The notes: generated from the sequence alone by a model not told the origin. 64,000 bases of DNA from Sphingopyxis sp. (GCA_030148985.1 JASBSJ010000082.1:1558-65557), one strand, 5' to 3'. Positions 34,557 through 54,846 are shown, counted from the first letter of the stretch. Translations and numbers: made by a program.

Positions 34557-34589
34557 CTGCCGTCTGGAGAGCGTGAAAGAGGTCAGCCA

Positions 34590-37441: not shown

Positions 37442-37451
37442 AGCCGTTGGC

Positions 37452-38700: not shown

Positions 38701-38922
38701 TTGACCGAAGAAACCCATCCGCCTCGCATCGATTGCGTTCTGATCTGTGGCGGCGTCTGGCACGACATGGAATTTGCACGGCTGGAGTTGCTCAAGCTCC
38801 TCGCCGAAGACCCGGCGGTCCGGACACGGGTGTTCGAAGATTATAAGAATGTCGATGCGATTGCTGCCGCCGATATGGCGCAGGGAAGCAACATCCGGGC
38901 GTCCGGCGCATTGTCTGTTTAG
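38701..38922 (+). pseudogene. 5' fragment of a probable ThuA-like domain gene
   Basis: RBS plus TTG start; VLICGGVWHDMEFARLELLKLL resembles ThuA-like N-termini. The frame ends after 73 codons, inside the pfpI upstream region. Confidence 0.55.
38888..38912 (+). promoter_or_regulatory. Putative EcfG (general stress sigma factor) promoter
   Basis: GCAAC-N16-CATT lies 30 bp upstream of pfpI, close to the GGAAC-N16/17-CGTT consensus. Confidence 0.45.
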
Positions 38923-38941
38923 CAGACAAGGAGCTTTCACC

Positions 38942-39505
38942 ATGCCAGCCGACACCCCCATCACCTCGCGCCGCATTCTCATCATGGCCACCGACGGCTT
39001 CGAGCAGTCCGAGCTCGAAGTGCCGCTGCAACGTCTTCGGGATGCAGGAGCCGACGTCGATATCGCCTCGCTCGACACCGGCAAGATCACGGGATGGGAC
39101 GAAGACGATTGGGGCGATGAGATCGAAGTCGATCTGCGGATCGCGGATGCGAAGGTCGAGGATTATGACGCGCTTGTCCTTCCCGGCGGACAAATCAATC
39201 CCGATCTGCTTCGCGTCGAGGAGCAGGCGATCGAACTGATCCAGGGTTTCGCCAGTGCCGGCAAACCCGTGGCCGCCATTTGTCATGCCCCTTGGCTGCT
39301 GGTCGAAGCCGGCCTCGCGAAGGGACGGCGCATGACCAGCTACAAATCGATCCGCACCGATATTGCCAACGCCGGCGCTGACGTCGTCGACGAGGCCGTC
39401 GTCGTCGATGCGAATATCATCACAAGCCGCTGTCCCGATGATCTGACGGCGTTTTGCAACGCGATTATCGAGGCATTGGCCGAAACCGCCGTACCCGCCG
39501 CATAA
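38942..39505 (+). CDS. PfpI/DJ-1 family protein (type 1 glutamine amidotransferase-like)
   Basis: ATDGFEQSEL, YDALVLPGGQINPD, AAICHAPW, ITSRCPDDL; AGGAG RBS. Confidence 0.92.
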   Translation: MPADTPITSRRILIMATDGFEQSELEVPLQRLRDAGADVDIASLDTGKITGWDEDDWGDEIEVDLRIADAKVEDYDALVLPGGQINPDLLRVEEQAIELIQGFASAGKPVAAICHAPWLLVEAGLAKGRRMTSYKSIRTDIANAGADVVDEAVVVDANIITSRCPDDLTAFCNAIIEALAETAVPAA

Positions 39506-39771: not shown

Positions 39772-39793
39772 TTTGTTATATATCTATATCAAA
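39772..39793. promoter_or_regulatory. Putative GntR operator, copy 1
   Basis: TTTGTTATA-TATC-TATATCAAA upstream of the CoA-transferase. Confidence 0.75.
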
Positions 39794-39835
39794 TAACCAA
39801 CTGGTGTTTCAGGACGAGGCGGGATTCGGGGATAT

Positions 39836-41020
39836 ATGGATGAACAGGCGCTGCCGCTTGCCGGCATCAGGATCATTGAATTCTCCCACATGGTGATGGG
39901 GCCGGCGGTCGGCGTGATCCTGGCCGATCTGGGTGCGGACGTTATCAAGGTCGAACCGATCGGCGGCGATCAGACCCGGCGCCTGCTGGGGTCGGGCGCG
40001 GGCTATTTCCCGATGTTCAACCGGAACAAGCGCAGCATCTGCCTTGACCTCAAAAGCGCAAAAGGGCTCGACGCCGCGCGCCGTCTGACCAGCAAGGCGG
40101 ACATCGTGATCGAAAATTTCCGTCCCGGCACGCTCGACCGGCTCGGCTTGGGCTACGACGCGCTGCGCGCGATCAACGAACGGCTGATCTATTGTTCGGC
40201 CAAGGGTTTTCTCCCCGGTCCCTATGAACATCGCACCGCGCTGGACGAGGTCACGCAGATGATGGGCGGCCTCGCCTATATGACGGGGCCGCCGGGCCGT
40301 CCGCTGCGCGCCGGATCGTCGGTCATCGACATCACCGGCGGCATGTTCGGGGTGATCGGCATCCTCGCCGCGCTCGAACGACGCCACCGCACCGGCCAGG
40401 GGGGAGAGGTCAAATGCTCGCTCTACGAAACCACGGCTTTCCTCGTCGGCCAGCATATGGCGCAAAAGGCGGTGACCGGACAGGCGGCGGCGCCGATGCC
40501 GGTGCGGATTTCGGCGTGGGCGATCTACGACGTGTTCGAAACCGCCAATGCCGACGAACAGCTTTTTGTCGGCGTGGTCAGCGATAGCCAGTGGCAGGCC
40601 TTTTGCCGCGCCTTCGGGTTTGACGCGCTCGCCGCCGACCCGGCCTATGCGACCAATAATCAGCGGGTGATGGCGCGCGACACGCTGCTGCCGCTGGTCC
40701 GCGCGCGGTTCGAAGCGATGTCGCGGGCGGATCTGGTGGCAAAGCTCGAAACGATCGGCCTGCCGTTCGCCGCGATCGTGCGGCCCGAGGATCTGTTCGA
40801 CGACCCGCATCTGGTCGCGGGCAACGGGCTGGTCGATGTCACCATTCCGGGGGGCGAGGCGACGCGCCTTCCCGCGCTGCCGATCGCATTCGACGACCAG
40901 CGCCCCGCGCTTCGCCACGACATCCCGACCATCGATCAGGACGGGGCCGACATTCTGCGCGAAATCGGCTTTGATGAAGCGGACATCGCCGAACTGACGC
41001 ACGCCGCGGTTGCCGGATGA
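39836..41020 (+). CDS. Class III (CaiB/BaiF) CoA-transferase
   Basis: PLAGIRIIE, LADLGADVIKVEP, NRNKRS, ENFRPG, catalytic D in SVIDITGG. Confidence 0.94.
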   Translation: MDEQALPLAGIRIIEFSHMVMGPAVGVILADLGADVIKVEPIGGDQTRRLLGSGAGYFPMFNRNKRSICLDLKSAKGLDAARRLTSKADIVIENFRPGTLDRLGLGYDALRAINERLIYCSAKGFLPGPYEHRTALDEVTQMMGGLAYMTGPPGRPLRAGSSVIDITGGMFGVIGILAALERRHRTGQGGEVKCSLYETTAFLVGQHMAQKAVTGQAAAPMPVRISAWAIYDVFETANADEQLFVGVVSDSQWQAFCRAFGFDALAADPAYATNNQRVMARDTLLPLVRARFEAMSRADLVAKLETIGLPFAAIVRPEDLFDDPHLVAGNGLVDVTIPGGEATRLPALPIAFDDQRPALRHDIPTIDQDGADILREIGFDEADIAELTHAAVAG

Positions 41021-42426
41021 CGCCGCGAACCGCTTTCGAAAAGATCTGGGCCGATCATCTGGTGGCGGATCTCGGCGACGGCACCGGGTTGCTGCTGATC
41101 GACCGCATTCTGCTCCACGAACGCACCGGCGGCGTCGCGCTGAACAGCCTCGCCGACGCGGGCCGGACCGTGGCGGCGCCGGAGCAGGTCTTTGCGACGA
41201 TGGATCATGTCGTCGATACGCGGACCGGCCGTACCGACGCCACCCTGATGCCCACGGGAACCCGGTTCATCGCGGCAACCCGCGCCGCCGCCCGCGCCGC
41301 GGGGCTGACGCTGTTCGATCTGGATGACCCGCGTCAGGGGATCGTCCATGTCATCTCGCCCGAACTGGCGATCGTTCTGCCGGGGCTCACGCTGGTCTGT
41401 CCCGACAGCCATACCTGCAGCCAGGGCGCACTCGGCGCGCTTGCGTGGGGGATCGGTTCGACCGAGGCCGAACATGCGCTGGCGACCAATACACTGCGCG
41501 TCGGCAAGCCCAGGACGATGCGGGTCACCGTCACCGGCCGACTGGGCACGGGGGTCACCGCCAAGGATCTGGCGCTGCACCTGCTCGATCGGTTCGGCTC
41601 TGCGGGCGCGCAGGGTCATGTCGTCGAATATGCCGGCGAAGCGGTCAGCGCGCTCGATGTCGAGGCACGGCTGACCCTGTGCAACATGGCGACCGAATTC
41701 TCGGCCTTCAGCGCCTTTATCGCCCCCGACGAGGTGGCGTTCGACTATCTGAAGGGTCGCGCCTATGCACCGGACGGCGCGGAGTGGGAGCGCGCCGTCG
41801 AGAACTGGCGCGGCCTCGTTAGCGATCCGGGCGCGGTGTTCGACGCGGAGCTGACAATCGATGCCGCCGATGTCGCGCCGATGGTGAGCTGGGGGACCAG
41901 CCCGCAACAGGCGGTGCCGCTGGGCCGTCCGGTGCCGCATCACAGCGCGGTCGCCGGCCGCGACACGCGCGAAGCTTATGACCGCGCGCTCGACTATATG
42001 GGACTTACGGCCGGTCAGGCGATCGAGGGGCTGCCGATCGACGCCGCGTTTATCGGTTCCTGCACCAACAGCCGGCTGTCCGACCTGCGCCGCGCCGCGG
42101 CGATCCTGAAGGGCCGCCGCGTCGCCGATGGCGTGAAGGCGATCTGCGTGCCGGGATCGACAATGGTCAAGGCCGCCGCGGAGGCAGAGGGGCTCGACCG
42201 CATCTTTCGCGACGCGGGGTTCGAATGGCGCGAGTCCGGCTGTTCGATGTGTTTCTTCGCGGGCGGTGAGAGTTTTGGGACGCAGGAGCGTATCATCAGT
42301 TCGACCAACCGCAATTTCGAAAGCCGCCAGGGCCCCGGCACGCGAACCCATCTTGCCTCGCCCGAAACCGTCGCGGCGTCGGCGGTCGCGGGCCGTATCG
42401 CCGATCCGCGCAGGACCGGCGCATGA
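41017..42426 (+). CDS. LeuC/DmdA-like Fe-S hydro-lyase, large subunit
   Basis: QGIVHV, DSHT, CNM, IGSCTN, GCSMC, STNRNFESRQG. Confidence 0.9.
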   Translation: MTPRTAFEKIWADHLVADLGDGTGLLLIDRILLHERTGGVALNSLADAGRTVAAPEQVFATMDHVVDTRTGRTDATLMPTGTRFIAATRAAARAAGLTLFDLDDPRQGIVHVISPELAIVLPGLTLVCPDSHTCSQGALGALAWGIGSTEAEHALATNTLRVGKPRTMRVTVTGRLGTGVTAKDLALHLLDRFGSAGAQGHVVEYAGEAVSALDVEARLTLCNMATEFSAFSAFIAPDEVAFDYLKGRAYAPDGAEWERAVENWRGLVSDPGAVFDAELTIDAADVAPMVSWGTSPQQAVPLGRPVPHHSAVAGRDTREAYDRALDYMGLTAGQAIEGLPIDAAFIGSCTNSRLSDLRRAAAILKGRRVADGVKAICVPGSTMVKAAAEAEGLDRIFRDAGFEWRESGCSMCFFAGGESFGTQERIISSTNRNFESRQGPGTRTHLASPETVAASAVAGRIADPRRTGA

Positions 42427-43013
42427 CCCCGTTCACCACCCTTACCGCAATCGCCGCGCCGCTGATCCGCGACAATATCGATACCGACGCGATCATCCCC
42501 TCGCGCGAGATGAAGTCGGTCGGAAAGACCGGGCTTGCCGACGGGCTGTTCGCCGGGTGGCGCTACACCGCGATCGGATCGCGCGAGCCGGACCCGTCGT
42601 TCATCCTCAACGATCCCCGCTACGCCGAAGCGCAGATCCTGCTCGCCGGGGCCAATTTCGGCTGCGGTTCCAGCCGCGAACATGCCGCCTGGGCGCTCGC
42701 CGAATATGGTTTCCGGGCGATCGTCGCGGCGTCCTTCAATCCGATCTTTCGTGGAAATTGCGTGCGCAACGGCATCGTCCCGGTCGAAATCGACGCGACG
42801 CAGATTGACGCCGACGGACCGATCACGATCGATCTTCCCCGCCAGACGCTGACGAGTGCCTCGGGACAACACATCGCCTTTGCGATCGACGCGGAGGCCA
42901 AGGCGATGCTGATCGGCGGGCTGGACGCGATCGACATGACCCTTGCGCGCGCTGCAGAGATTGCGCGCTTTCGCGACGCCGACCGCAACCGGCGCCCCTG
43001 GGCCTATCTCTAA
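42423..43013 (+). CDS. LeuD/DmdB-like hydro-lyase, small subunit
   Basis: NIDTDAIIP, NFGCGSSREHA, GLDAI; ATGA coupling to the large subunit. Confidence 0.92.
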   Translation: MTPFTTLTAIAAPLIRDNIDTDAIIPSREMKSVGKTGLADGLFAGWRYTAIGSREPDPSFILNDPRYAEAQILLAGANFGCGSSREHAAWALAEYGFRAIVAASFNPIFRGNCVRNGIVPVEIDATQIDADGPITIDLPRQTLTSASGQHIAFAIDAEAKAMLIGGLDAIDMTLARAAEIARFRDADRNRRPWAYL

Positions 43014-43019
43014 AAGAAG

Positions 43020-43041
43020 GCGGGCCGCCGAAGCGGCCCGC
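43020..43041. terminator. Hairpin between convergent operons
   Basis: GCGGGCCGC-CGAA-GCGGCCCGC. Confidence 0.6.
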
Positions 43042-43076
43042 AGGGTCACGCCAGGATTTGAGGGGCTCTTGCGAGC

Positions 43077-44204
43077 CTATTCGTGCGGCTCGTATCGCGG
43101 CACGTCATAATCATATTTGCGCCACTCGCCGTTGATATATTCAATGCCCGTCTTGTAGCTGCAGTCGGTGACATAGGTCGCCCAAAGCCGCGTGCCGGTA
43201 CGCACCAGCGTCCAGCCCCAATTGGCCGTGCCGTTGCCCTTTTTCAGATTTCCGTCGCCGTCGCGTTCGCCCGGGGGCGCCTGGGCGACGGTCCCGTGCC
43301 CGACGCCGGCCGCGCGCCAGAAATAGCCGCGCGTCCCGCGCTTATAGGTGGACACGCCTTGCTCGACGCATTCGCCGCCATAGACGGAGCGCGTGGGGCC
43401 GCGTTCGTCGCTCGTGGCGACGCGGGTGCCTTCGGGAATATAATATTCCTCAAAGCTCGGATGGACCTCGGCGCCGCCGCCGAAATTGCCGGGCTTCGAA
43501 CTCGGCGGGGCCGGAATGCTGGACACGAAGGTCATCCAGGTCATTTCACCGGTGTCGGGATCCTTGCGCATCAGATTGTGCAGATAGCCGGGGAAGTTGC
43601 CGCCGGTGCGATAGGCCGGAAACGGCTCGTCGATATACCAGGCTTCCTTGTAGCGGTTCCAGTCGCGGACACGCGCGTGGGTGCGCGCGCCGCGCTTGCC
43701 CTTGGATGCGACGACGAACTTCGGCGGCCCCTTGAACCATTGCAGCAGCACCGCGCCCTGTCGCGACGTCACCTGGCCGCGAAACATGCCGGCCGGGATA
43801 TAGCTGTAGGAATATTTGCTGAGCTTTTCGTCGCCGATGGTCATATCGCCGTCCAGAACGACGATCTCGTTATCGACCTCGTCATATCCGGGGGGAAGGC
43901 GCCAGCCCGCGGGGACATAGGTAATCTGCGCGACCGCATCCATGCTGGGCGATTCGCTCAGCAATCGGCGATAGAGGCCCGGGGCGAAACCCGGCGCCAC
44001 AAAAGGCTCCCAGCCCACGAACTCGATATTGGGGATGTTGTGCATCAGCCCCGGACGGCCTTCAACCTCATAGCCCTTTTCGGGCACCGGGAACGGCGGC
44101 GCCTGACTGACCGTAGGCGGGCCATAGGATTGTGCGAGCACGGGGGCCGCCAGGGCGGTGAGACCGGCCGACAAAGCAAGGGTCAGACAGGATTGGCGCG
44201 ACAT
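43077..44204 (-). CDS. Secreted bicupin-like protein (DUF4437-like), paralog 3
   Basis: Signal peptide ending VLA, AAGGAGG RBS, two cupin-like halves, strong similarity to 45206-46315. Confidence 0.7.
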   Translation of the reverse strand: MSRQSCLTLALSAGLTALAAPVLAQSYGPPTVSQAPPFPVPEKGYEVEGRPGLMHNIPNIEFVGWEPFVAPGFAPGLYRRLLSESPSMDAVAQITYVPAGWRLPPGYDEVDNEIVVLDGDMTIGDEKLSKYSYSYIPAGMFRGQVTSRQGAVLLQWFKGPPKFVVASKGKRGARTHARVRDWNRYKEAWYIDEPFPAYRTGGNFPGYLHNLMRKDPDTGEMTWMTFVSSIPAPPSSKPGNFGGGAEVHPSFEEYYIPEGTRVATSDERGPTRSVYGGECVEQGVSTYKRGTRGYFWRAAGVGHGTVAQAPPGERDGDGNLKKGNGTANWGWTLVRTGTRLWATYVTDCSYKTGIEYINGEWRKYDYDVPRYEPHE

Positions 44205-44218
44205 GGTCATCCTCCTTC

Positions 44219-45151
44219 TCACTTCGCCTGCGCCGAAGGCTCGGCGCATGAATCGCTATAGCTTTTCCACGAACCGGGCCCCCTGCGGTAAAGCCAAACG
44301 GAATAGCTGTCGGAATATTGGCTGAGCCCGCCGTGGGCGATGCCCGCGGGGCGGAAGAAATAGCCATCCGGGGCATAGGTTCCGGCCACCTGTCCTTGCG
44401 GCAGGCATTCGGCGATCGTCATATCGCCGGCGAGCATATAGCCTTCTTCCCAACCCTTGCTGGTCGCCCACAGCGGCAGGTCGCCTTCGCCGCTCATCAC
44501 CGGATAACCGCCCGGCGCGGTTGCGATCCAGGTCACTTCGCCGGTCGCCGGGTCGGAGCGGAGCATTTTTACATGCACCGGCGAGTTCGTCATGATCGGC
44601 TCGTCGCGGAACTTGGGCAGGACGCTTGGTGTCGTGGTCGGCACGTCGTGATAACCAATCCCGTCGATCGCGCCCGGCTTGGCGTCGGGGCGCGACGTTG
44701 CGCTCGCGACATAATCGGGCGCTCCGCTCCAGAAGAACAGGACGGTCGCGCCTTCCTTGGTGCCAAAGCTGTGCGCGGTGCCGGCCGGGTAATAGGCATA
44801 GGCATAACGGCCCATCGGCTTGTCGCCGATGCTCATCCCGCCGTCGACCACGAACATCTCGAGATCGGCGCTATGATAGCCGGAGGGCTGCGTCCAGCCG
44901 GCCGGCAGCGTGACGAGCAGCGTCCGCGCGCCGGTCTTGTCGTCAAAGCTCAGCAGCTTGAATTCGACGGGCGGCAGGCCGGTAAAGATCAGCGGGCGCA
45001 GGTGCAGGTTGCGCGGTGCCACGAAGCCGACAAACTCGCTCGACCGATCGCGCGACTGGGGGACGCGGATGTCCTGAGCCAGTGCGCCGGTTCCTAGCAG
45101 CAACGCGCCGCACAGTAACAGGCCTCTTCGCAGTCTTTTGCTTGTCGGCAT
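44219..45151 (-). CDS. Secreted bicupin-like protein (DUF4437-like), paralog 2
   Basis: Signal peptide ending ALA; KLLSFDDKTGARTLLV, GYHSADLEMFVVDG, YYPAGTAH, WEEGYMLAGD, YFFRPAGIAHG. Confidence 0.75.
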   Translation of the reverse strand: MPTSKRLRRGLLLCGALLLGTGALAQDIRVPQSRDRSSEFVGFVAPRNLHLRPLIFTGLPPVEFKLLSFDDKTGARTLLVTLPAGWTQPSGYHSADLEMFVVDGGMSIGDKPMGRYAYAYYPAGTAHSFGTKEGATVLFFWSGAPDYVASATSRPDAKPGAIDGIGYHDVPTTTPSVLPKFRDEPIMTNSPVHVKMLRSDPATGEVTWIATAPGGYPVMSGEGDLPLWATSKGWEEGYMLAGDMTIAECLPQGQVAGTYAPDGYFFRPAGIAHGGLSQYSDSYSVWLYRRGPGSWKSYSDSCAEPSAQAK

Positions 45152-45205
45152 TGTCAGCTCCCCTTGTTTCGATGGCTTCGGATGGTGGGTATCTCGCGCC
45201 CCGCG

Positions 45206-46315
45206 CTACGGCTTCACCCGGTATCGCGGCACATTGTAATCATATTTTTCCCAACCCTTTCGGGTGTATTCGAGCCCGGTTTTATAGCTGCAGTCGGTGA
45301 CATAGGTGGCCCACAGCGACGTTCCCGTCCGGACCAGCGATACCGAATAGCCGGGCGTGCCGGGCGAGGTTCCGTGCGAACCGCCATGCGCGACGCCGCC
45401 GGGGCGCCACCAATAGGTGCCGTTGCCGTAGGTAACTGGGGCCTCACCCTGTTCGAGGCACTCGCCGATCACCGTGTCATGCGTCTTTTCGAGGAAATAA
45501 TATTCCTCGAAGCTGGGATGCACTTCATAACCGCCGCCGAAATTGCCCGGTCTTCCGCTGGCGGCCGCCGGAATGCTCGCGCCGAAGCTCATCCAGGTCA
45601 TCTCGCCCGAATCGGGATCCTGGCGCAGGAGTTTGTGCAGCGCGCCCGGGAAATTTCCGCCGGTGCGATAGGCCGGGAACGGCTCGTCGATATACCATGC
45701 GGCGGCGAAATGGTTCCAGTCGCGAACGCGCGCATGTTCGCGCGCGCCCTTCTTGCTCTTCGTCGCGGCGATGAATTTGGGTGATCCCTTGAACCATTGC
45801 AGCAACACCGCGCCCTGCCGCGACCGTACGGGGCCGCGCACCACGCCCGCCGGAACATAGCTGTAGGAATATTTGCTCAGTCTCTCGTCGCCGATCGCCA
45901 GATCGCCATCAAGGACGAGGATTTCGTTGTCGACCTCGTCATATCCCCTCGGCTGGGTCCAGCCTGCGGGCACATAGGTAATCTGTGCGACGGCGCCCAT
46001 GCTGGGCGACTCGCTCAGGTGGCGGCGCAGCAACCCTTTCGGAAAGCCCGGCGCGGCAAAGGGCTGCCATTCCAGCTTGGTGGTATCGTAATGGAGGACG
46101 AATCCCGAGCCGGGCGGCCCCGGACGGCCCTCGACCGCATAGCCGTCGTCGGGCACTGGAAAAGGCGGCCTCTGATCGGTGGACGGCGGCCCCTCGGTCT
46201 GGGCCGCCGCGGGCACCAACGCCATCGCGGCGCAGCAAGCCGGCAGGATCGTCCACAATGCGGCACCACGCGATGCCGCGCCGCCAGTCGCTCCCGCTCG
46301 GCCCGCCGCCCGCAT
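45206..46315 (-). CDS. Secreted bicupin-like protein (DUF4437-like), paralog 1
   Basis: Start overlaps the receptor stop; signal peptide ending AAA; EVHPSFEEYYFL and YWWRPGGVAHG. Confidence 0.7.
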   Translation of the reverse strand: MRAAGRAGATGGAASRGAALWTILPACCAAMALVPAAAQTEGPPSTDQRPPFPVPDDGYAVEGRPGPPGSGFVLHYDTTKLEWQPFAAPGFPKGLLRRHLSESPSMGAVAQITYVPAGWTQPRGYDEVDNEILVLDGDLAIGDERLSKYSYSYVPAGVVRGPVRSRQGAVLLQWFKGSPKFIAATKSKKGAREHARVRDWNHFAAAWYIDEPFPAYRTGGNFPGALHKLLRQDPDSGEMTWMSFGASIPAAASGRPGNFGGGYEVHPSFEEYYFLEKTHDTVIGECLEQGEAPVTYGNGTYWWRPGGVAHGGSHGTSPGTPGYSVSLVRTGTSLWATYVTDCSYKTGLEYTRKGWEKYDYNVPRYRVKP

Positions 46316-48528
46316 CAGAAGGAATATCCGACGCGGAACATGACCTGGCGCGGTTCGCCGGGATAGCCGGTCACCGCCGGCTGCACCGGGTTGGCGCTCA
46401 GCAAACCGGCGACCAGATAGCGCTTGTTGGCAAGATTGCGTCCTTCGACCGACAAGCTCCAGTGATCATCGTCGCTGTGCCAGCCGACCGAGGCATTGAA
46501 AAGGTCCAGCGGGGCGGTCTGAACCAGATCGGTCTGGTTGGAGATCGTGTTATATACTTTGGACGTGTGATCCCAGTTGGCGCCGATCGACAGCGAGCCC
46601 CAGCCATCGGCCAGCGTTGGCGAATAGCGGAAGCCAAGGCTGATTTTCGCCTTGGGCAAGCCCTTGATCTCATTTCCCGTACAATCGACCCAGACGCCGA
46701 ACTGGTTCGCACAGCTGAAGCTCTTGGTATATTTGCCGTCGTTGAACGCCATGTTGCCATAGAGTTCAAGATCGTCGGTCACCCGCAAGTTCGGTTCGAG
46801 CTCAAGGCCCCACACGCGGGCGGCACCCGCGTTGAGCGTCACGATGAACGCGGCGCCGGGGATGATCGTGCTCAGCTGCAGATCGCTGTAATCCGCTACA
46901 TAGCCCGTTGCATTCAGCCGAAAACCGATGCTGGGGAAGTTCATTTTGGCACCCAGTTCGTAACTGTCGACGAACTCGGCACCATAGGGTGTCGGGACCA
47001 GCTGAGCAGTGATCGGATCGCGCGAGTTGAAGCCCCCGCTGCGCGTGCCTTTGGTCCATGAGGCATAGGTGAACAGATTGTCGTTGATCTCCCAGTTCAC
47101 GCCCAGCTTGGGCGTGACCGAGGAGAAAGTGGAGCGCCCCTCCTGCTCGCCGGCCGCAGACCCGATCGTCAGCGCATAATAGTTGGTCGTCTCGCGGGTG
47201 TAGCGCAGGCCGCCCAACACGCTGACTCCGCCGCCGATCGTGTAGGTCGCCTGGGCAAAGATTGCGGGCGCCTCGACCTTGTTGGCCGCATCGTCGGTCT
47301 GCGCGGTCCCCGCCGCACCCTGCTGCGTGCCTTTCTCGGTGAAATAATAGACGCCGGCGACAGCTTTAAGCCTGTCGCCCGTGTAGATGAGGTTCACTTC
47401 TTGCGTGAACCATTCGCTGTCGAACTGCACGCGGTTGGCATTGGCGACGACCAGTCGTCCGCCATTGGCTGCGATACGCGCCGGCGACAGGAAGGTGTCG
47501 TTACCCAGGCTCTCCTGATTCAGTCGGCCATAGCCGGTGATCGAGCCGATCTCGAGGTCGTCGGTGATCGCATAGGTTGCGTTGAGACTGGCGCCGCGCT
47601 GATAGATGCGCTGATAGAGGTTGGCGAAAACCTCATTGACCGTCAGGTCGCGGTCGGGGGTTGCATAGGGATCGGTCACGCCGATCGGCGCGATCAGCGG
47701 GATGGGGATGTTGGAATCCGAACGATCCTGCATCGCATAGGCTGAAAGCTCGAATGTCAGCTCGGGGGTCGGTTCGAACAGCAGCTTCAGACGCTGGGCC
47801 GAACGGTCCAGATCGCCGATCCGATCATCATACTCGATACCGTAAACGAACCCGTCGCGCTTGCGGAAAAGCCCGCTGACCGAGAATGACAGCATGTCTT
47901 CGATGATCGGCCCGCTGAGATAGGCTTTGGCCTCGACCGCCTTATAGTTGCCCACTGCCACCTGCGCCGCGCCGGTCCAGTCATAGGACGGCCGCTTGGT
48001 CACCAGCTTGATCGCGCCGCCCGAGGTGTTGCGACCATAGAGCGTTCCTTGCGGACCGCGCAGGAACTCGACCCGCTCGACATCGAAGAAATCGAAGAAG
48101 GAGCCGTTGGGCCGGGGCTGAATGACGTTGTCGATATACACGCCGACCGTGCCGTTCGCGCGAATACCACCCGTTTCGGTACCGGCGCCGCGCACGACGA
48201 TCTTCATCTGCGACGACCCCGCCGTTGCCTGCGACAGCGTGATGCCCGGAACCTGATTGGCGATATCGCGAACGTCGCGAACCTGCCGCTCTTGCAGCAC
48301 ACCCTCGCCCAGCGCCGTCACCGAGATGGGCGTGGTCCGCACCGTGCCGCCATAGCGCTCGGCGGTGACGACGATTTCCCCGTCGTCCTGTGCATCCTCC
48401 GCGATCATCGGTTCGGTCGCCTGGCTGTCCGGCGCCTCCTGAGCCCAGGCGGGCCCGGCCATCGCGGCGGAAGCCAGAAGCGCAGCGAGCAGGAGTGCGC
48501 GCGGTGTAGGCTGGGACAGTTGCGTCAT
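46315..48528 (-). CDS. TonB-dependent receptor (module 4)
   Basis: EIVVTAER, VERVEFLRGPQGTLYGRNTSGGAI, terminal YSF. Confidence 0.95.
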   Translation of the reverse strand: MTQLSQPTPRALLLAALLASAAMAGPAWAQEAPDSQATEPMIAEDAQDDGEIVVTAERYGGTVRTTPISVTALGEGVLQERQVRDVRDIANQVPGITLSQATAGSSQMKIVVRGAGTETGGIRANGTVGVYIDNVIQPRPNGSFFDFFDVERVEFLRGPQGTLYGRNTSGGAIKLVTKRPSYDWTGAAQVAVGNYKAVEAKAYLSGPIIEDMLSFSVSGLFRKRDGFVYGIEYDDRIGDLDRSAQRLKLLFEPTPELTFELSAYAMQDRSDSNIPIPLIAPIGVTDPYATPDRDLTVNEVFANLYQRIYQRGASLNATYAITDDLEIGSITGYGRLNQESLGNDTFLSPARIAANGGRLVVANANRVQFDSEWFTQEVNLIYTGDRLKAVAGVYYFTEKGTQQGAAGTAQTDDAANKVEAPAIFAQATYTIGGGVSVLGGLRYTRETTNYYALTIGSAAGEQEGRSTFSSVTPKLGVNWEINDNLFTYASWTKGTRSGGFNSRDPITAQLVPTPYGAEFVDSYELGAKMNFPSIGFRLNATGYVADYSDLQLSTIIPGAAFIVTLNAGAARVWGLELEPNLRVTDDLELYGNMAFNDGKYTKSFSCANQFGVWVDCTGNEIKGLPKAKISLGFRYSPTLADGWGSLSIGANWDHTSKVYNTISNQTDLVQTAPLDLFNASVGWHSDDDHWSLSVEGRNLANKRYLVAGLLSANPVQPAVTGYPGEPRQVMFRVGYSF

Positions 48529-48645
48529 GATTAAACCCCCTGATTATCCATGTGACCCAATCGGCCAATTGTTCCTGGCTCTGCGCGCGGAGCATCTTTT
48601 CTCGTTGGAGGTCCGGTTACGACTCGCGGGAGATGTCCGGCCTCA

Positions 48646-48716
48646 TTTGTTATGCATTCATATCAAATCACGAGTCGGCCCGCTCGGCAAGTGATTTGTT
48701 ATAGATTTATGATGAT
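48646..48716. promoter_or_regulatory. Putative GntR operators, copies 2 and 3
   Basis: TTTGTTATG-CATT-CATATCAAA (48646-48667) and TTTGTTATA-GATT-TATGATGAT (48695-48716). Confidence 0.7.
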
Positions 48717-48782
48717 TGAGTGATTGAACCTGTCATTTCCGGGACTTGAGCAGCAAGATTCAAACGCGGGCGCAGCGCGGGA

Positions 48783-50108
48783 TCAGCCCGGATCGGCGCG
48801 CCGATTGACAAGCGCGGCAAGTGCGCCCGACAGCGCGAGCGGGATGGCGAAGCACAGGAAGACGATCCACAGCGGCAACTGCTGTCCAAGCAGGAAACCG
48901 CCGAGCAACGGCCCGATCACCGATCCGCCGCGACCGATGCCGATCGCCCAACCGATCCCCGAACTGCGGACTTCGGTTGGGTAGATCTGCGCCGCCAACG
49001 AATAGAAGCCGCTGAACCCGCCCTGCACCGCAAGTCCCATGCCGACCGCGACCCCCAGCACCGCGACCAGCGGCATCGGCTGGCTGAACACCACCAGCAA
49101 CACCGCGCCGGCCAGCATATAGGTGCGGATCAGCCAGCCGATGTCGCGTTTGGTCGCCAGCCAGCCAATGCTGGTCGTCCCGATAATCCCGCCGACGTTG
49201 AAGACCGATCCGGCCCACAGCGAATTGGCCGCGCTGAGCCCCGCTTCCGACGCCAGGCGCGGGATCCAGCTGGTCACGAAATAGAGCACCAGATAGCCGA
49301 GGAAGATCGACAACCACAAAATGAGCGTCGATTTCCACCGTTCGCCCGCGAACAAATGCCCCAGCTTCGGAACGGCACTACGACTGCGCGGCGGCGGCAG
49401 GCTGTCCAGTTGCGGCAAACGGAGGCGGACCCGCAGCGCATTAATCTTGGCCAGCGCGCCGACGGGCTGGCGGTTCTGGAGAAAGTCGAGCGACTCTGGC
49501 AGGAGCATGAAGGCAAAAGGCAGCACCACTGCGCTGACCACCGCTGTGCCCAGCAAGGTCGCTTGCCAGCCAAATTGCGGGATCGACCAGATCGATACCA
49601 GGCCGGTCAGTACCGCGCCAATCGGATAACCCGCCTGAAAACAGCCGATCGCGATACTGCGCTTGCCTGGCGGCGCATATTCGCTCGCCAACGCGGCGAC
49701 GCTGGCAAGCAAGGTGCCGATACCTAGGCCAGTCAGAAAGCGGAATCCGATAAAGGCGGGAATCGTCTGGACCAGACCCGTACCGAATGCGCCGATCGTG
49801 ATTACCACCAGCGCGCCGAGCACGACCGGACGCCGCCCGATTCCGTCGGCCAGCGGCGCGATCAGGATCGAACCCAGCATCATGCCGACCAGTCCGGCGC
49901 TGAAGATCACCCCCAACACCTCGAAACTGACCCCCCAGTCCTCAGCCATTGCGGGAGCGATGTAGGAGATTATCAGCACATCCATGCCATCAAGCATGTT
50001 GATCACAGTGCAGATTGCGACCACCATGATCTGAATAGGGGCCCAGCTCGCGGCGCCGGTCGGTGCTGCTTGAAGGTCGCCTGTCGTGCCGGTTGCCGCC
50101 ATTCTCAT
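48783..50108 (-). CDS. MFS transporter, aromatic acid:H+ symporter (AAHS)-like
   Basis: NMLDGMD, LADGIGRRP, RFLTGLGIG, ASEYAP, IYPTEVRSSGIGWAIGIGRGG. Confidence 0.9.
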   Translation of the reverse strand: MRMAATGTTGDLQAAPTGAASWAPIQIMVVAICTVINMLDGMDVLIISYIAPAMAEDWGVSFEVLGVIFSAGLVGMMLGSILIAPLADGIGRRPVVLGALVVITIGAFGTGLVQTIPAFIGFRFLTGLGIGTLLASVAALASEYAPPGKRSIAIGCFQAGYPIGAVLTGLVSIWSIPQFGWQATLLGTAVVSAVVLPFAFMLLPESLDFLQNRQPVGALAKINALRVRLRLPQLDSLPPPRSRSAVPKLGHLFAGERWKSTLILWLSIFLGYLVLYFVTSWIPRLASEAGLSAANSLWAGSVFNVGGIIGTTSIGWLATKRDIGWLIRTYMLAGAVLLVVFSQPMPLVAVLGVAVGMGLAVQGGFSGFYSLAAQIYPTEVRSSGIGWAIGIGRGGSVIGPLLGGFLLGQQLPLWIVFLCFAIPLALSGALAALVNRRADPG

Positions 50109-50163
50109 GTCCCCTGCTGCTGCCGAAGGAGATATTACGCGGCGATGACGAAGCGGCAAGTTA

Positions 50164-50185
50164 TTTGTTATAGATTTATAACTTT
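50164..50185. promoter_or_regulatory. Putative GntR operator, copy 4
   Basis: TTTGTTATA-GATT-TATAACTTT in the divergent MFS/GntR promoter. Confidence 0.7.
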
Positions 50186-50314
50186 ATAGCAAATTTCACC
50201 TTCAACCCGGCAAACGGCTTCCCACGCGCCGAACTGCTAAGTTATAGAGGCAGCGGCAATGCCCAACGGGCGCTTGCCCATATATGCGCCCTTAATCGCG
50301 CGGAGAGGGATTGG

Positions 50315-51088
50315 ATGATCAGCGGCAACCGGGAATTATCCAGCGTCGATCGCAAGACCGCCGTTCCCCTTTATCATCAGATTTTCGTGCAGCTGCGCGA
50401 TGAAATAGTTTCGGGCAGCCGCCCGTACGGCTCGCTTGTTCCCACCGAACAGGAATTATCGGACAGCTTCGGTGTATCGCGGATCACCGCGCGCCGCGCG
50501 CTGGACGAGTTGGCGCTACAACATTTCGTCGAGCGCAAGCGCCGCGTCGGCACGCGCGTCATTTATGACCTGCCGGTGCGGCCGATTGAGGCCGATATTG
50601 GCAAGGCCGTCGATTCGCTCGTGACCTTTGGCCGCAAGACCAAAGTGACTGTGCTCGAACTGACGCGCGAGGACGTGCACGATCCAGTCGCCTCGCTGCT
50701 CGGCGTCTCATCGGGAACGCGTGTCCTGCGCGCGGTGCGTCTGCGCTGGCTCGATGGCGAGCCGCTGGGGTTGACGATCGCCCATGTGCCAGAAGCGCTC
50801 AGCTTCGCAATCACCGAAAAGAGCCTGAGGCAAACTCCGATCCTCAACCTGGTTCAGCAATCGGGTCGCGAGTTTGGGGATGCGGCGCAGACGATTGCGG
50901 CGGTTTCGGCCGATCCGGCGATGGCGGCCGCGCTCAAGATCGACTCGATGGCGCCCTTGTTGCGGATCACCCGCGCGTTTCGCGACAAGGGTGGCGAACC
51001 GATGCTGCTGACGCAGGCTTTTTATCGCGCAGATCGGTACCAGATGCGCTTCGACCTGCAATCGAGCACGCTCCACGCCGAAGTCTGA
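50315..51088 (+). CDS. GntR family regulator, HutC/UTRA subfamily
   Basis: PLYHQI, VPTEQELSDSFGVSRITARRALDEL HTH, UTRA-type C-terminus (YRADRY). Confidence 0.93.
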   Translation: MISGNRELSSVDRKTAVPLYHQIFVQLRDEIVSGSRPYGSLVPTEQELSDSFGVSRITARRALDELALQHFVERKRRVGTRVIYDLPVRPIEADIGKAVDSLVTFGRKTKVTVLELTREDVHDPVASLLGVSSGTRVLRAVRLRWLDGEPLGLTIAHVPEALSFAITEKSLRQTPILNLVQQSGREFGDAAQTIAAVSADPAMAAALKIDSMAPLLRITRAFRDKGGEPMLLTQAFYRADRYQMRFDLQSSTLHAEV

Positions 51089-51137
51089 GCCGCAAAAAAT
51101 CGGTCGGACACCCTTGCCATTTCATGCGCTTCAGTTA

Positions 51138-51159
51138 TTTGTTATATAAATAGTACAAA
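51138..51159. promoter_or_regulatory. Putative GntR operator, copy 5
   Basis: TTTGTTATA-TAAA-TAGTACAAA directly before the GAGGAG RBS of the lyase. Confidence 0.75.
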
Positions 51160-51174
51160 TGAGGAGCGTCAGCG

Positions 51175-52137
51175 GTGGCCGATCCGATGGACCATATCGA
51201 CATATTGGTGAGCGAGGTCGGTCCGCGCGACGGGCTGCAGAGCATCGCCACCATCATGTCGCTGGACGCCAAAAAGGCGTGGATCGACGCCGAGGCTGCC
51301 GCCGGTGTCCGCGAGATCGAGGTGGGCAGCTTCGTTCCCGCCAAGCTGCTGCCGCAGCTGGCCGATACCGCCGAACTGGTCGCCCATGCCCGAACCATTC
51401 CGGGCCTGACCGTCGCGGTATTGGTTCCCAACGCCAAAGGAGCGGAAGCGGCGATTCGGGCCGGCGCGCACAAGATCACCCTACCGCTTTCCGTCTCCGA
51501 AACGCACAGTCTCGCCAACCTGCGACGCTCGCACGAACAGGTTATCGACGAGGCGGTGACCATCGCCAATCTAATCCGCGCATTGCCTGCGGCCGATCGA
51601 CCGTATTTCGAAGGCAGCCTGTCGACGGCGTTCGGCTGCACGCTGGAGGGGCCGATTCCCGACGCCCAGATTGCCCGTCTCGCCGCGACGCTGATGGATG
51701 CAGGCTGCGACGAGGTCGGGCTATCGGACACGACGGGCTATGCCGATCCGCGCGCAGTGAAGCATCTCATCCGGCTGGTGCGCAGCGTCGTCGGCGACGA
51801 TGCGCTGACCGGCATCCATCTGCACAACACGCGCGGCCTGGGGCTCGCCAATGCGCTCGCGGCGCTCGAATGCGGCCTGACCACGCTCGATGCGTCGCTG
51901 GGCGGCCTCGGCGGATGCCCGTTCGCGCCCGGCGCGAGCGGCAATATTGTGACCGAAGATCTGGTGTTCATGCTCGAGGCGATGGGTCTGCGCACCGGCA
52001 TCGACATCGACCGCCTGCTGGCGGTGCGCGAGATCGTCACCGCGGCGCTGCCGCACGAGCAAATGTACGGCTTCCTTCCCGATGCGAAACTGCCGCTTGG
52101 CTTCAAGCCTGCCCACAGCCTGGAGAATGTCGGATGA
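51175..52137 (+). CDS. HMG-CoA lyase family protein
   Basis: EVGPRDGLQ, AFGC, LSDTTG, HLHNTRG, GGLGGCPFAPGASGN. Confidence 0.94.
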   Translation: MADPMDHIDILVSEVGPRDGLQSIATIMSLDAKKAWIDAEAAAGVREIEVGSFVPAKLLPQLADTAELVAHARTIPGLTVAVLVPNAKGAEAAIRAGAHKITLPLSVSETHSLANLRRSHEQVIDEAVTIANLIRALPAADRPYFEGSLSTAFGCTLEGPIPDAQIARLAATLMDAGCDEVGLSDTTGYADPRAVKHLIRLVRSVVGDDALTGIHLHNTRGLGLANALAALECGLTTLDASLGGLGGCPFAPGASGNIVTEDLVFMLEAMGLRTGIDIDRLLAVREIVTAALPHEQMYGFLPDAKLPLGFKPAHSLENVG

Positions 52138-52826
52138 GCGAAATCGTCGGAACGCGGATGGTCAGCGACGGCAAGACCGCGCGGCAAATCTTCGAAGAGG
52201 TGATGGCCAATCCGGCCCGCGCCAAGTTCGGCTTCGGCAGCAAGCTCGCCGTGGTCAATGTCGATCTCCAGAACGCTTATACGCGGATCGATCGCTACAA
52301 GACTGCTTACGAAACCGATCCGCGCCAGATCGAACATATCAATAGGATCTCCGCCCTTGCGCGCGCGAAGGCGATGCCGGTGATCTGGACCCATGTTGCT
52401 TATGCCGAGGACGCAAGCGATGCCGGCATATGGGGCACGCGCACGAACACGCCCGACAGCCTGCAGAACATCAAGTACGACAGCGACCGCCACGCTTTCG
52501 ACGAACGCTGCGACATCGCCCCCGGCGACGCGGTCTATACCAAGCGGATGCCTTCGCCGTTCTTCGAGACCCCGCTCCAGAGCCTGCTAGTGTGGCACAA
52601 GGTGGATACCGTCGTCATCACCGGCGGCTCCACCTCGGGCTGCGTCCGCGCCGCCGCAGTGGACAGCCTCAGCCGCGGCTATCGCACGATCGTGCCGATC
52701 GAGACCTGCGCCGACAAGCATGAGAGCTATCATTTCGCCAATCTGACCGACCTCCAGCTGAAATATGCGGATGTCGAACCGGTGCAGACCGTTATCGACT
52801 GGCTCGAGGCCCAGACCGATGCGTGA
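52134..52826 (+). CDS. Isochorismatase-family cysteine amidase (maleamate amidohydrolase / N-carbamoylsarcosine amidase-like)
   Basis: Catalytic D (NVDLQ), K (TKRMPS) and C (GGSTSGCVRA); NLTDLQLKYADV. Confidence 0.88.
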   Translation: MSEIVGTRMVSDGKTARQIFEEVMANPARAKFGFGSKLAVVNVDLQNAYTRIDRYKTAYETDPRQIEHINRISALARAKAMPVIWTHVAYAEDASDAGIWGTRTNTPDSLQNIKYDSDRHAFDERCDIAPGDAVYTKRMPSPFFETPLQSLLVWHKVDTVVITGGSTSGCVRAAAVDSLSRGYRTIVPIETCADKHESYHFANLTDLQLKYADVEPVQTVIDWLEAQTDA

Positions 52827-53694
52827 GGGCGAGAAAGATCCCGGCCTCTATGATTTCCGCCCTTATCGTGGGCGCCCGAAGCTGGCCTGGCCCGATGGCA
52901 AGCAGGTTGCGGTCTGGGTCTCGCCCAATATCGAATTCTACGAACTCGATCCGCCCGCCAATCCCCATCGCAAGAGCTGGCCCAGGCCCCACCCGGACGT
53001 CGTCGGCTACAGCCACCGCGATTACGGAAACCGCGTCGGCCATTGGCGTCTTGCAGAGGCAATGTCGCGGCACGGCTTCCCGGGGTCGGTCAGCCTGTCG
53101 GTGGCGATGTGCCAACATCTGCCGGAGGTGGTTGCCGATGCCGCCGCGCGCGGCTGGGAGTTTTTCAGCCACGGAATCTACAACACCCGCTACAGTTACG
53201 GGATGGACGAGGCCCAGGAACGCGCGCTGATCGAGGATTCGATCCGCACCGTTCGCGAGGCGACCGGGCAGACGATCAAGGGCTGGCTCGCCCCCGCGCT
53301 GACCCACACGCCGCGCACGCTGGATCTGATCGCCGAATATGGCCTGTCCTATACCTGCGACCTCTATCACGACGACCAGCCGGGCGAGGTGCATGTGAAG
53401 TCGGGGCGTTTGATCTCGATGCCCTACAGCCTGGAGGTCAACGACCACTACGGCTTCTTCGTCTACAACATGTCGCCGCGCGACTATGCCGATACGCTGA
53501 TCCGGCAATATCAGCGGCTGGCCGACGAAGGCGGCACGGTGATGTGCATTCCGCTCCACGCCTATCTGATCGGCCAGCCGCATCGCATCGGTCCGTTCGA
53601 GGAGGTGCTCCGGCACATTGCCGCCGACGGCCGCGCCTGGATTACCCGGAGCGGCGACATCGCCGATCATTATATGCAGCAGGTGGCGGCATGA
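52819..53694 (+). CDS. Polysaccharide deacetylase-fold hydrolase (PuuE-like), copy 1
   Basis: WPDGKQVAVWV, RDYGNRVG, WEFFSHG, KGWLAP, HDDQP, LHAYLIGQPHRI. Confidence 0.88.
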   Translation: MREGEKDPGLYDFRPYRGRPKLAWPDGKQVAVWVSPNIEFYELDPPANPHRKSWPRPHPDVVGYSHRDYGNRVGHWRLAEAMSRHGFPGSVSLSVAMCQHLPEVVADAAARGWEFFSHGIYNTRYSYGMDEAQERALIEDSIRTVREATGQTIKGWLAPALTHTPRTLDLIAEYGLSYTCDLYHDDQPGEVHVKSGRLISMPYSLEVNDHYGFFVYNMSPRDYADTLIRQYQRLADEGGTVMCIPLHAYLIGQPHRIGPFEEVLRHIAADGRAWITRSGDIADHYMQQVAA

Positions 53695-54608
53695 GCCTCG
53701 ATCCGGCCTATCTCGACTATCCGCTGCGCAAGCGCGGCATGGATCACGGCTATTACCCCTATTCCAACCTGTTCGAACGGCCGCCGCTCGCCTGGCCATC
53801 GGGGAAGGCCGTTGCGGTAGCGATCGTCGTCAATCTCGAGTGGTTTCCGATCCTGCCCGCTGACAAGCCGTTTCGCGCGCCGGGGCATATGGTCACGCCC
53901 TATCCCGATTATCGGCATTATACCGCGCGCGAATATGGCACGCGGGTCGGCTTCTACCGGATGCTCGATGCGTTCGCGAAAGTCGGCGCGCGGGTCTCGG
54001 TCGCGGCCAATGGCGCGATCGCCGAACGCTATCCGCAGATCATCGCCGATATTCTTGCCGATGGTCATGAAATCGTGGCGCATTCGACCGACATGAACGG
54101 CACCATCGCTTCGGGGCTGCCCGAGGACGAGGAACGCGCGCTGATCGCCGCCGCGCTCGACGCGTTGGAACGGGTCACAGGGATGCGGCCGCGCGGGTGG
54201 ATGTCGATCGCGCGTTCACAATCATTCAACACCCCGCGCCTGCTCGCCGAGGCGGGGCTGGCCTATATGGCCGACTGGGTGAACGACGAATTGCCTTATC
54301 GCTTCGAAACCGGCGCAGGCGCCATCGTCAATGTGCCGGTCAATCACGAGCTTTCCGACCGGCAGATCGTGACCGTCCAGCAGCAGTCGGCCGATTCCTA
54401 TGTCGAACAGATGATGGACGCATACGCGCTCATAAAGAGCGAAGCGTCGGCGCTCGGCGCCAGCCGCATGTTGCCGTTGAACGTCACGCCCTATGTAATG
54501 GGTCTGCCTTATCGGATCGGCGCGCTCGAGCGGTTGCTAGGTTGGTTGGCCAATCAGGACGATGCCGCTTTTCATAGCCTCAGCGAGATCGGAGCTGCCC
54601 TGCGCTGA
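53691..54608 (+). CDS. Polysaccharide deacetylase-fold hydrolase (PuuE-like), copy 2
   Basis: WPSGKAVAV, REYGTRVG, HEIVAHS, RGWMS, NDELPY, TPYVMGLPYRI; ATGA coupling. Confidence 0.88.
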   Translation: MSLDPAYLDYPLRKRGMDHGYYPYSNLFERPPLAWPSGKAVAVAIVVNLEWFPILPADKPFRAPGHMVTPYPDYRHYTAREYGTRVGFYRMLDAFAKVGARVSVAANGAIAERYPQIIADILADGHEIVAHSTDMNGTIASGLPEDEERALIAAALDALERVTGMRPRGWMSIARSQSFNTPRLLAEAGLAYMADWVNDELPYRFETGAGAIVNVPVNHELSDRQIVTVQQQSADSYVEQMMDAYALIKSEASALGASRMLPLNVTPYVMGLPYRIGALERLLGWLANQDDAAFHSLSEIGAALR

Positions 54609-54771: not shown

Positions 54772-54846
54772 TGGCTGGGGCGGCAGGATTCGAACCTGCG
54801 AATGGCGGCATCAAAAGCCGCTGCCTTACCACTTGGCGACGCCCCA
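54772..54846 (-). tRNA. tRNA-Gln(TTG)
   Basis: Minus strand TGGGGCG...GCGGC-TTTTGAT-GCCGC...GGTTCGAATCC...CGCCCCAGCCA. Confidence 0.97.

Follow-up and report, generated by a model that had tools for sequence, protein, structure and literature searches.

The question raised by this locus was whether thirteen neighbouring genes, at positions 39772-54608 of a 64,000-nucleotide stretch from Sphingopyxis sp. (GCA_030148985.1, JASBSJ010000082.1:1558-65557; the whole stretch is called the window), form one catabolic pathway and for which compound. A first-pass annotation had suggested that a substituted cyclic imide is converted to a 2-oxoacid and an acyl-CoA under control of a GntR regulator. We conclude that the block encodes a genuine catabolic system that is regulated, widespread and so far uncharacterised, and that draws on known enzyme families. 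Because the catalytic residues of Puu1, the amidase, LeuC and the lyase are kept, and by the logic of the enzyme families, the succession of imide, amic acid, substituted maleate, malate, CoA ester and cleavage is probably right, whatever the side chain. As the compound imported and degraded we tentatively favour a substituted maleimide that bears a carboxylate. The likeliest candidate is hematinic acid imide, formed when haem, bilins or chlorophyll are oxidised, which would yield ammonia, pyruvate and glutaryl-CoA; we give this assignment slightly less than an even chance.

Thirteen intact open reading frames were found between 39772 and 54608, and the family calls of Pfam and NCBIfam agreed, which confirmed the genes and families proposed at the outset. 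The plus strand carries coaT-leuC-leuD, gntR and hmgl-iso-puu1-puu2; the other five genes, cup3, cup2, cup1, tbdr and mfs, are encoded on the minus strand. Gene spacing suggests five transcription units: coaT-leuC-leuD; tbdr-cup1-cup2-cup3, preceded by two sites of an operator-like motif; mfs; gntR; and hmgl-iso-puu1-puu2. The divergent mfs and gntR have one motif site in common.

A genome scan with Puu1 returned at least 577 related stretches, of which the best 80, leaning to close relatives, were used with 10 kb on each side; a survey at the level of the order covered 401 genomes, the Sphingopyxis genome itself being 73% complete. iso and puu1 were present in all 80 loci, puu2 in 79, coaT in 68 (one a 34% paralog), leuC and hmgl in 66 each and leuD in 64. 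All seven enzyme genes occurred together in 62 of the 80 loci, in several gene orders, and 75 of the 401 genomes had a Puu1 ortholog. By contrast, the gntR ortholog was found in 32 loci, the window-type MFS ortholog in five, and the cupin trio with the receptor in one. The trio occurred in two of the 401 genomes, those of Sphingopyxis and G106, and further in G033 (from another draw), L086, L134, L135 and L136. The system thus consists of a core of seven enzymes, which is common, and a front end of receptor, three cupins and MFS, which is rare; neighbourhood conservation, the check first suggested for all 13 genes, holds for the enzyme genes and not for the full set.

Ring opening would fall to Puu1 (52819..53694, plus strand, 291 aa), a PuuE-fold hydrolase. 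In the alignment with PuuE, His126 and His259 correspond to its His118 and His247; Glu39, outside the printed alignment, was matched to Glu36 by motif position. Residue conservation was judged in alignments of 42 Puu1, 39 Puu2, 37 of 60 amidase, 34 of 62 LeuC, 21 of 25 LeuD and 33 of 53 lyase sequences, the window's own counted; Glu39, His118 and His247 were invariant in 42/42. The roles of Glu36, His126, His259 and Trp130 in PuuE-type catalysis are those given in PMC11424739, which also presents BpIH as a proven PuuE-fold cyclic imidase. HxnM of Aspergillus nidulans, a further proven cyclic imidase of this fold, is followed by an amidase (PMC9304392). This HxnM/HxnN precedent for the front half, together with the kept catalytic residues, supports the suggested route from imide to 2-oxoacid and acyl-CoA as likely. 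Puu2 (53691..54608, plus strand, 305 aa, 30% identity to Puu1) keeps the Glu and has an invariant Thr266 (39 sequences) at the position of His247. Because this Thr replaces the catalytic His, Puu2 is likely a non-catalytic or altered partner. Of the two PuuE-like hydrolases proposed at first, both have the fold, but the catalytic set is kept in Puu1 only. The amidase Iso (52134..52826, plus strand, 230 aa) belongs to the isochorismatase family and has the cysteine triad Asp44, Lys137 and Cys170, invariant in 37/37.

The genes leuC (41017..42426, plus strand, 469 aa) and leuD (42423..43013, plus strand, 196 aa) encode the large and small subunits of an aconitase-family hydratase. The [4Fe-4S] ligands Cys349, Cys409 and Cys412 of LeuC as well as the active-site residues of the family, Asp63, His64, Asp130-His132 (the Asp-Ser-His element), Arg432 and Arg437, were invariant in the 34 sequences. 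LeuC Arg36, present in 34/34, aligns with aconitase position 74, and from aconitase we assume that it lies in the pocket for the substrate side chain. This position is Ile in 4KP1 (isopropylmalate isomerase), Gly in 4KP2 (homoaconitase) and Ala in aconitase, and it is Val in the LeuC copies of contigs C40 and C86 and in one copy of C83 of the same genome. In LeuD, Arg28 and Glu29 of the substrate loop were invariant in 21/21. The extra arginines, LeuC Arg36 and LeuD Arg28, likely hold a third carboxylate.

The notion that the genes are grouped by accident and that LeuCD serves leucine synthesis draws on LeuD exceeding the leuD cut-off and LeuC exceeding that of the broad PRK05478 family. It is largely refuted by the joint retention of the seven genes in 62 of 80 loci and by the specific profile: LeuC reached 553.7 bits with TIGR00170, under the cut-off of 560.25, whereas four other copies in the genome passed with 685.6-762.6 bits. 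In a tree of 22 rows, one of them very long, LeuC formed its own branch with other CoaT/lyase-linked hydratases (support 90/99, and 100% of 200 bootstrap trees). With the TIGR00170 score, the non-hydrophobic Arg36 and the separate branch, leucine biosynthesis was rejected as the role of the pair, in accordance with the first-pass annotation.

In some loci a further hydratase lineage, lacking Arg36, lies next to a lyase of the ICL family (ICL in 9/80 loci); in Sphingomonas sp. JE1 an acyl-CoA synthetase comes after this ICL-type branch. A single imidase feeding two branches would suit maleimides with a propionate as well as those with an ethyl or vinyl group. The Sphingopyxis genome has five LeuCD pairs in all (C40, C57, C83, C86), that of C86 among acyl-CoA genes. 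A sister cluster on C83 at about 108000-134700 (L001, L002) holds two LeuCD pairs, a second amidase, a second HMG-CoA-lyase homolog, a CoA-transferase, hydantoinase A/B, an FAD monooxygenase, a maleate-isomerase-like and an ICL-family protein, two Cupin_7 proteins, an MFS and a TonB receptor. Sister modules of this type are fused with the imide core in other families. Plasmids pJE1 and pTomTYG65b (L117/L121) share one gene arrangement with nearly equal spacing and carry both hydratase branches.

CoaT (39836..41020, plus strand, 394 aa) is a class III CoA-transferase (PF02515, E 1.6e-110) that stayed under every named NCBIfam cut-off; its PDB relatives include formyl-CoA and succinate-HMG CoA-transferases. 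Hmgl (51175..52137, plus strand, 320 aa) is a homolog of 3-hydroxy-3-methylglutaryl-CoA (HMG-CoA) lyase whose metal and catalytic residues Arg18, Asp19, His215, His217 and Cys248 were invariant in 33/33. Aconitase-type hydratases require a maleate-like unit, and in Chloroflexus a class III CoA-transferase with an HMG-CoA-lyase-type enzyme cleaves (R)-citramalate. At the family level the cassette thus has the pair of the (R)-citramalyl-CoA route. Ordinary HMG-CoA lyase chemistry, in which the lower part would make 3-hydroxy-3-methylglutarate from 3-methylglutaconate and end in acetoacetate and acetyl-CoA, would agree with Hmgl exceeding the cut-off of the HMG-CoA lyase subfamily PRK05692 (271.4 bits, cut-off 246) and with the closeness of CoaT to a succinate-HMG CoA-transferase in the PDB (E 1.9e-51). 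Yet a LeuCD-type enzyme places the hydroxyl next to a carboxylate of the maleate-like unit, unlike in HMG, and the genome has two other HMG-CoA-lyase homologs; we regard this explanation as highly improbable.

With hematinic acid imide as substrate, the cassette could work as follows. The TonB receptor would take up a pigment fragment, and in the periplasm the three bicupins with their metal-type sites may trim or bind it, which is the weakest step. The AAHS-type MFS would import the resulting one-ring acid, Puu1, likely partnered by the degenerate Puu2, would open the imide, and the cysteine amidase would free ammonia to give 2-methyl-cis-homoaconitate. The [4Fe-4S] LeuCD-like enzyme would then hydrate this triacid, with the extra arginines likely gripping its third carboxylate, CoaT would convert the hydroxy acid to its CoA ester, and Hmgl would split this ester into pyruvate and glutaryl-CoA.

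Three indirect lines tentatively favour tetrapyrrole fragments, with hematinic acid imide first: the extra arginines, a glutarate module and a link to CpcT. On a plasmid of Burkholderia plantarii, two transposase genes flank a cassette with iso, puu1 and puu2 products of 57, 59 and 45% identity and an MFS of 54% identity to those of the window. It further encodes a TcuA-like flavoprotein, a homoaconitase-type hydratase, a methylisocitrate-lyase-like enzyme, ETF, a glutaryl-CoA dehydrogenase (E 1.8e-220) and a glutarate-CoA-transferase-like enzyme. Pyruvate and glutarate would together account for the C8 skeleton of hematinic acid (as 2-methyl-cis-homoaconitate), and the TcuA-like flavoprotein could desaturate the dihydro form derived from chlorophyll ring D. 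The Sphingopyxis genome has a glutaryl-CoA dehydrogenase as well (67%).

In G081, a gene of the CpeT/CpcT phycobilin-lyase family (E 2.8e-25; 4O4O, E 0.0037) lies at a distance of about 8 kb from puu1; genes of the family are located at L151:18562-19530 and in L171, L170 and L176. The family occurred in 23 of the 401 genomes, in six families, and 22 of these were among the 75 Puu1 genomes; the exception, G147, is fragmented, and its 2.9-kb contig has the same neighbour gene. CpcT adjoins the coaT ortholog in G078, G132 and G138, while no pathway genes were found within 20 kb around CpcT in G382, G408 and G409. An HbpS-like gene in 9/80 loci is a weak sign in the same direction. Hematinic acid and maleimides do occur in leaves and sediments (PMC7318184).

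A number of observations weigh against hematinic acid imide. The hydratase of the B. plantarii cassette is a different one (34% identity), as is its lyase, and therefore glutarate is borrowed evidence. Glutaryl-CoA dehydrogenase was not among the recurrent annotated neighbour families of the 80 loci, an annotation that covered families seen in more than one locus. The CpcT co-occurrence was counted across related genomes, CpcT barrels may bind other ligands, and the 73%-complete Sphingopyxis genome gave no match to CpcT nor to a methyltransferase-like family that accompanies the pathway elsewhere (see below). No recognised ring-oxidising enzyme was found among the 13 genes. The receptor is unlike haem receptors, with 80 bits against a cut-off of 316.85 for TIGR01785 (haem/haemoglobin). 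The earlier idea of pigment breakdown gains indirect support from the glutarate module and the CpcT link, but none from the receptor.

The lower enzymes raise a further objection to hematinic acid imide. To our knowledge, the HMG-CoA-lyase family releases acetyl-CoA and not a C2-substituted acyl-CoA, and we know of no precedent for glutaryl-CoA release by an enzyme of this type. Moreover, LeuC Arg36 could instead just shrink the pocket. A maleimide whose side chain is small or absent (maleimide, citraconimide), degraded via (R)-malate or (R)-citramalate to glyoxylate or pyruvate and acetyl-CoA, would fit the lyase family best, and Arg36 might then fill the side-chain pocket. CoA-transferase and lyase would be the (R)-citramalate pair of Chloroflexus, and the top PDB match of the amidase is 4L07 (E 2.8e-29), which, like 3OT4, we take to be a maleamate amidase (NicF/Ami). 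Such a substrate nevertheless appears unlikely: small neutral imides would need neither an AAHS-type acid transporter nor a TonB receptor, the two additional arginines, both invariant, point to an anionic arm, and the shared MFS travels with glutarate genes.

The match of the amidase to 4L07 was nearly tied with that to N-carbamoylsarcosine amidohydrolase (E 4.2e-29). Trp130 of PuuE is not kept in Puu1, where an invariant Asn122 aligns beside Tyr121, and the profile of the allantoinase PuuE (TIGR03212, cut-off 424.6) gave 112.5 (Puu1) and 114.9 bits. A ureide or hydantoin ring, which would be opened in the manner of allantoinase and then undergo hydrolysis of the N-carbamoyl group before its carbon skeleton passed to the lower enzymes, would agree with PuuE being an allantoinase, with the amidase tie, with a ureidoglycolate-lyase-like gene in four loci and with linked hydantoinase A/B modules. 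It is made very unlikely by these same scores, which are far under the PuuE cut-off, and by ureide products yielding no maleate for an aconitase-type hydratase.

More remote puu1/puu2 pairs (38-48% identity) accompany other enzymes, for example a molybdenum hydroxylase and TcuA in Arthrobacter, and therefore the ring cannot be told from the pair by itself. On a plasmid of Arthrobacter crystallopoietes (L144, NZ_CP018865.1, about 170000-193000) a puu pair of 41 and 38% identity lies with a molybdenum hydroxylase, an asparaginase-type amidase, a CoA ligase, a reductase, a thioesterase and TcuA. This presumably resembles an isonicotinate-to-tricarballylate gene set, a pathway that our literature search did not return. 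The distant pair supports imide hydrolysis in general, but from a pyridine source. The same chemistry could start from a 2,6-dihydroxypyridine carboxylate (a six-membered imide tautomer, e.g. substituted citrazinate) or an N-acyl maleamate and pass through an aconitate-like triacid to cleavage of a CoA ester. Besides the A. crystallopoietes plasmid, the AAHS-type MFS, which suits an aromatic acid, a TcuA-like flavoprotein in 9/80 loci and the extra arginines, which any triacid fits, are in line with such a source, as is HxnM, which opens a six-membered imide (PMC9304392). On the other hand, no molybdenum hydroxylase or NicX-type dioxygenase was seen among the recurrent annotated neighbour families, unsubstituted citrazinate would give cis-aconitate, for which no special lower pathway is needed, and the glutarate module and the CpcT link would be left unexplained. 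We consider a pyridine-type source possible but rather improbable. A riboflavin/lumichrome pathway was rejected, as different enzymes act there in the part of PMC12746152 considered.

The front end comprises the receptor, the cupins and the transporter. The TonB-dependent receptor Tbdr (46315..48528, minus strand, 737 aa) reached no named ligand family. Cup1 (45206..46315, 369 aa), Cup2 (44219..45151, 310 aa) and Cup3 (43077..44204, 375 aa, 62% identity to Cup1), all on the minus strand, are bicupins with hydrophobic N-terminal leaders, putative by sequence, and match PF14499 (DUF4437/Cupin_7) with 34.7, 61.8 and 26.7 bits at a cut-off of 24. The predicted fold of Cup1 (pLDDT 89.2) has two barrels and is closest to 2QDR (Z 26.7, rmsd 2.7, 257 residues aligned; next Z 18.7), which Cup2 also matches (E 2.5e-9). 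In the Cup1/Cup3 family His/Glu/His and two Cys are kept in the C-terminal barrel (72 sequences), in the Cup2 family His/Glu/His in the N-terminal barrel (58 sequences). The cupins are probably periplasmic metal enzymes or binding proteins, and their reaction is the least certain of the pathway. A predicted Cup1-Cup2 complex scored 0.46, whereas the 3 controls reached 0.00 at best; agreement between runs was at least 0% of the contacts and the pLDDT of the partners 87 or higher. This weak result is not relied on; the mark applied to this score was reached by 116/157 solved and 2/215 mismatched pairs, and at up to 0.60 by 18/157 and both mismatches. Mfs (48783..50108, minus strand) is an AAHS-like transporter with 337.8 bits for TIGR00895 at a cut-off of 418.55. 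Its start at 50108 was picked by a ribosome-site-like sequence, while the ORF finder runs on to 50159. In 3/5 of its loci the window-type MFS ortholog lies beside a TcuA-like gene.

In relatives the place of this front end appears to be taken by a larger upper module. A methyltransferase-like family was present in 66/75 Puu1 genomes compared to 2/326 others, and among plasmids all 8 records with such a gene and all 6 with a Cup2-like gene were among the 10 with a close Puu1. The protein (L103:14364-15919, and many of the loci L037-L116) has 400 aa with a class I fold, invariant His/Glu and an all-helical N-terminal part; its gene is often multicopy, with a 110-130-aa unnamed protein usually next. 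Fold searches with it gave only tied generic class I matches (Z 14.6-17.0), and atlas look-ups for two unnamed neighbour proteins gave no useful name. Other DUF4437-like cupins were found near the core in 11/80 loci and in 5/5 tested genomes without the methyltransferase-like family. Because neither the Sphingopyxis genome nor that of G106 (100% complete) had a methyltransferase-like match, we suggest that the cupin trio stands in for the larger upper module. It is conceivable, though doubtful, that the cassette is the lower half of an undescribed widespread route of bilin/tetrapyrrole mineralisation, in which the three secreted DUF4437 bicupins, as a new periplasmic metal enzyme, would cut di- or tetrapyrrolic pigments to hematinic acid imide and replace the methyltransferase-fold, CpcT-linked upper module of the relatives. 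Near the core (L037-L116, L025, L036) DUF3108-like, DUF3598, DUF1838, DUF1330, HapK-like and HbpS-like unnamed proteins recur, as do an FAD-linked oxidase and nitrilase-family and VOC-family enzymes.

The regulator GntR (50315..51088, plus strand, 257 aa) has the helix-turn-helix and UTRA effector domains of the HutC subfamily by domain search, and is not HutC itself (110.1 bits, cut-off 220). Operator-like palindromes lie at 39772..39793 upstream of coaT-leuC-leuD (also at this place in L017, L131, L134 and L135), at 48646..48667 and, with a weaker right arm, 48695..48716 upstream of tbdr, at 50164..50185 between mfs and gntR, and at 51138..51159 upstream of hmgl-iso-puu1-puu2. The motif core at these five positions compares with 0.00 expected copies in the window and was reached in 0/100 shuffles; the 22-bp palindrome with at most three mismatches fits 4/5 sites (8 strand matches, 0.13 expected). 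The exact core occurs eight times in the 2.94 Mb of the genome, five of these in the cassette, and a prefiltered genome scan with a weight matrix derived from the five sites added two weak sites of 19.0 and 16.3 bits, compared to 31.5-40.7 in the cassette. The matrix found a match in 32/32 related loci with this GntR ortholog but in 15/48 without GntR within 10 kb (Fisher p 3.6e-11, overstated because the loci are related). JE1 has a GntR gene at a distance of about 18 kb from puu1, and therefore some of the 15 may have GntR farther away. Matches in relatives precede the same operons despite changed gene order. The dedicated regulon of five putative units with one operator-like motif, as first proposed, is supported, and the encoded GntR likely binds the motif.

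DNA similarity to relatives begins at about 39750 and ends at about 54600, with 89% identity over 14.86 kb in L017, L134 and L135 and about 82% in G106, and the flanking genes differ in relatives; therefore the block behaves as a self-contained cassette. It is flanked by a DJ-1/PfpI-family gene (38813-39505, plus strand) and, downstream of puu2, by tRNA-Gln (54772-54846, minus strand). For the tRNA region, the matches listed contained no repeat of at least 14 bases elsewhere on the contig, and no attachment-site scar was seen; an Rfam scan of 30000-60000 returned only the tRNA. A terminator-like 9-bp GC hairpin lies between the convergent ends of leuD and cup3 (43020..43041), found by consensus matching that gave 16 sites compared to 10.4 in shuffles. 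A promoter scan was not above chance (6 compared to 3.5), and two soil metatranscriptome runs of one study covered genes and gaps alike with short low-depth pieces, possibly DNA, and gave no evidence of expression. Labelled by eye, the genes of the region 31392-38510 encode a TonB receptor, a tryptophan-halogenase-like protein, an MFS and a regulator of the LacI type, with a lower G+C of 0.57-0.60 and a third-position G+C of 0.68 compared to about 0.8 elsewhere.

Chlorophyll is made and degraded on a scale of 10^12 kg per year. The searched literature, which mostly did not cover subscription journals and excluded supplements, contained no account of the cluster, no paper on DUF4437, nothing on the catabolism of hematinic acid in bacteria and no gene-level route for microbial use of maleimides or hematinic acid; if our assignment is true, the cassette would supply a missing step of pigment recycling. 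With Puu1 as marker, the core is present in about 19% of the sampled genomes of the order (75/401). The assignment would also provide first functions for DUF4437 cupins and for CpcT homologs outside phototrophs, and correct many annotations as leuC/leuD, polysaccharide deacetylase or HMG-CoA lyase. If the substrate were another heterocycle, it would still be a new catabolic pathway for a nitrogen ring. Candidate substrates are obtainable by peroxide oxidation of bilirubin.

Finally, the cassette was compared with known systems. Eubacterium barkeri DmdAB with dimethylmalate lyase, and the maleate/citraconate hydratase HbzIJ, likewise hydrate a substituted maleate with a LeuCD-type enzyme, and the sister branch in related loci shares their ICL-family lyase; the cassette branch, in contrast, uses a CoA-transferase and an HMG-CoA-lyase homolog and has LeuC Arg36. 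In Chloroflexus, class III CoA transfer also precedes HMG-CoA-lyase-type cleavage of a malate-type CoA ester, but there in carbon fixation, whereas the cassette joins these enzymes to an imide-opening front end and dedicated transport. The maleamate amidohydrolase NicF/Ami (presumably 4L07, 3OT4) is an isochorismatase-family Asp/Lys/Cys amidase like Iso, but unlike the aerobic nicotinate route the cassette has no NicX dioxygenase, NicD deformylase or maleate isomerase, and a hydratase comes next instead. Npun_F5605 (2QDR), a DUF4437 bicupin and putative dioxygenase, uncharacterised according to its entry title, is the closest fold to Cup1; in the cassette there are three copies, each with a leader, and the barrel that holds the metal-type site is not the same in all of them but the opposite one. 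Puu1 shares fold and Glu/His/His set with PuuE and BpIH (3CL6, 1Z7A, 3S6O; PMC11424739), but only at E 2e-25 and without Trp130, and the cassette has an obligatory degenerate paralog (79/80 loci). A parallel in logic is HxnM/HxnN of the A. nidulans nicotinate pathway, where a PuuE/HpPgdA-fold imidase is followed by an amidase that frees ammonia from the amic acid. As far as PMC9304392 describes it, that system has a single gene for the imidase, its amidase is of the amidase-signature type and no cysteine hydrolase, the ring is saturated and six-membered, and it lacks the stage of hydratase, CoA-transferase and lyase with which the cassette continues.

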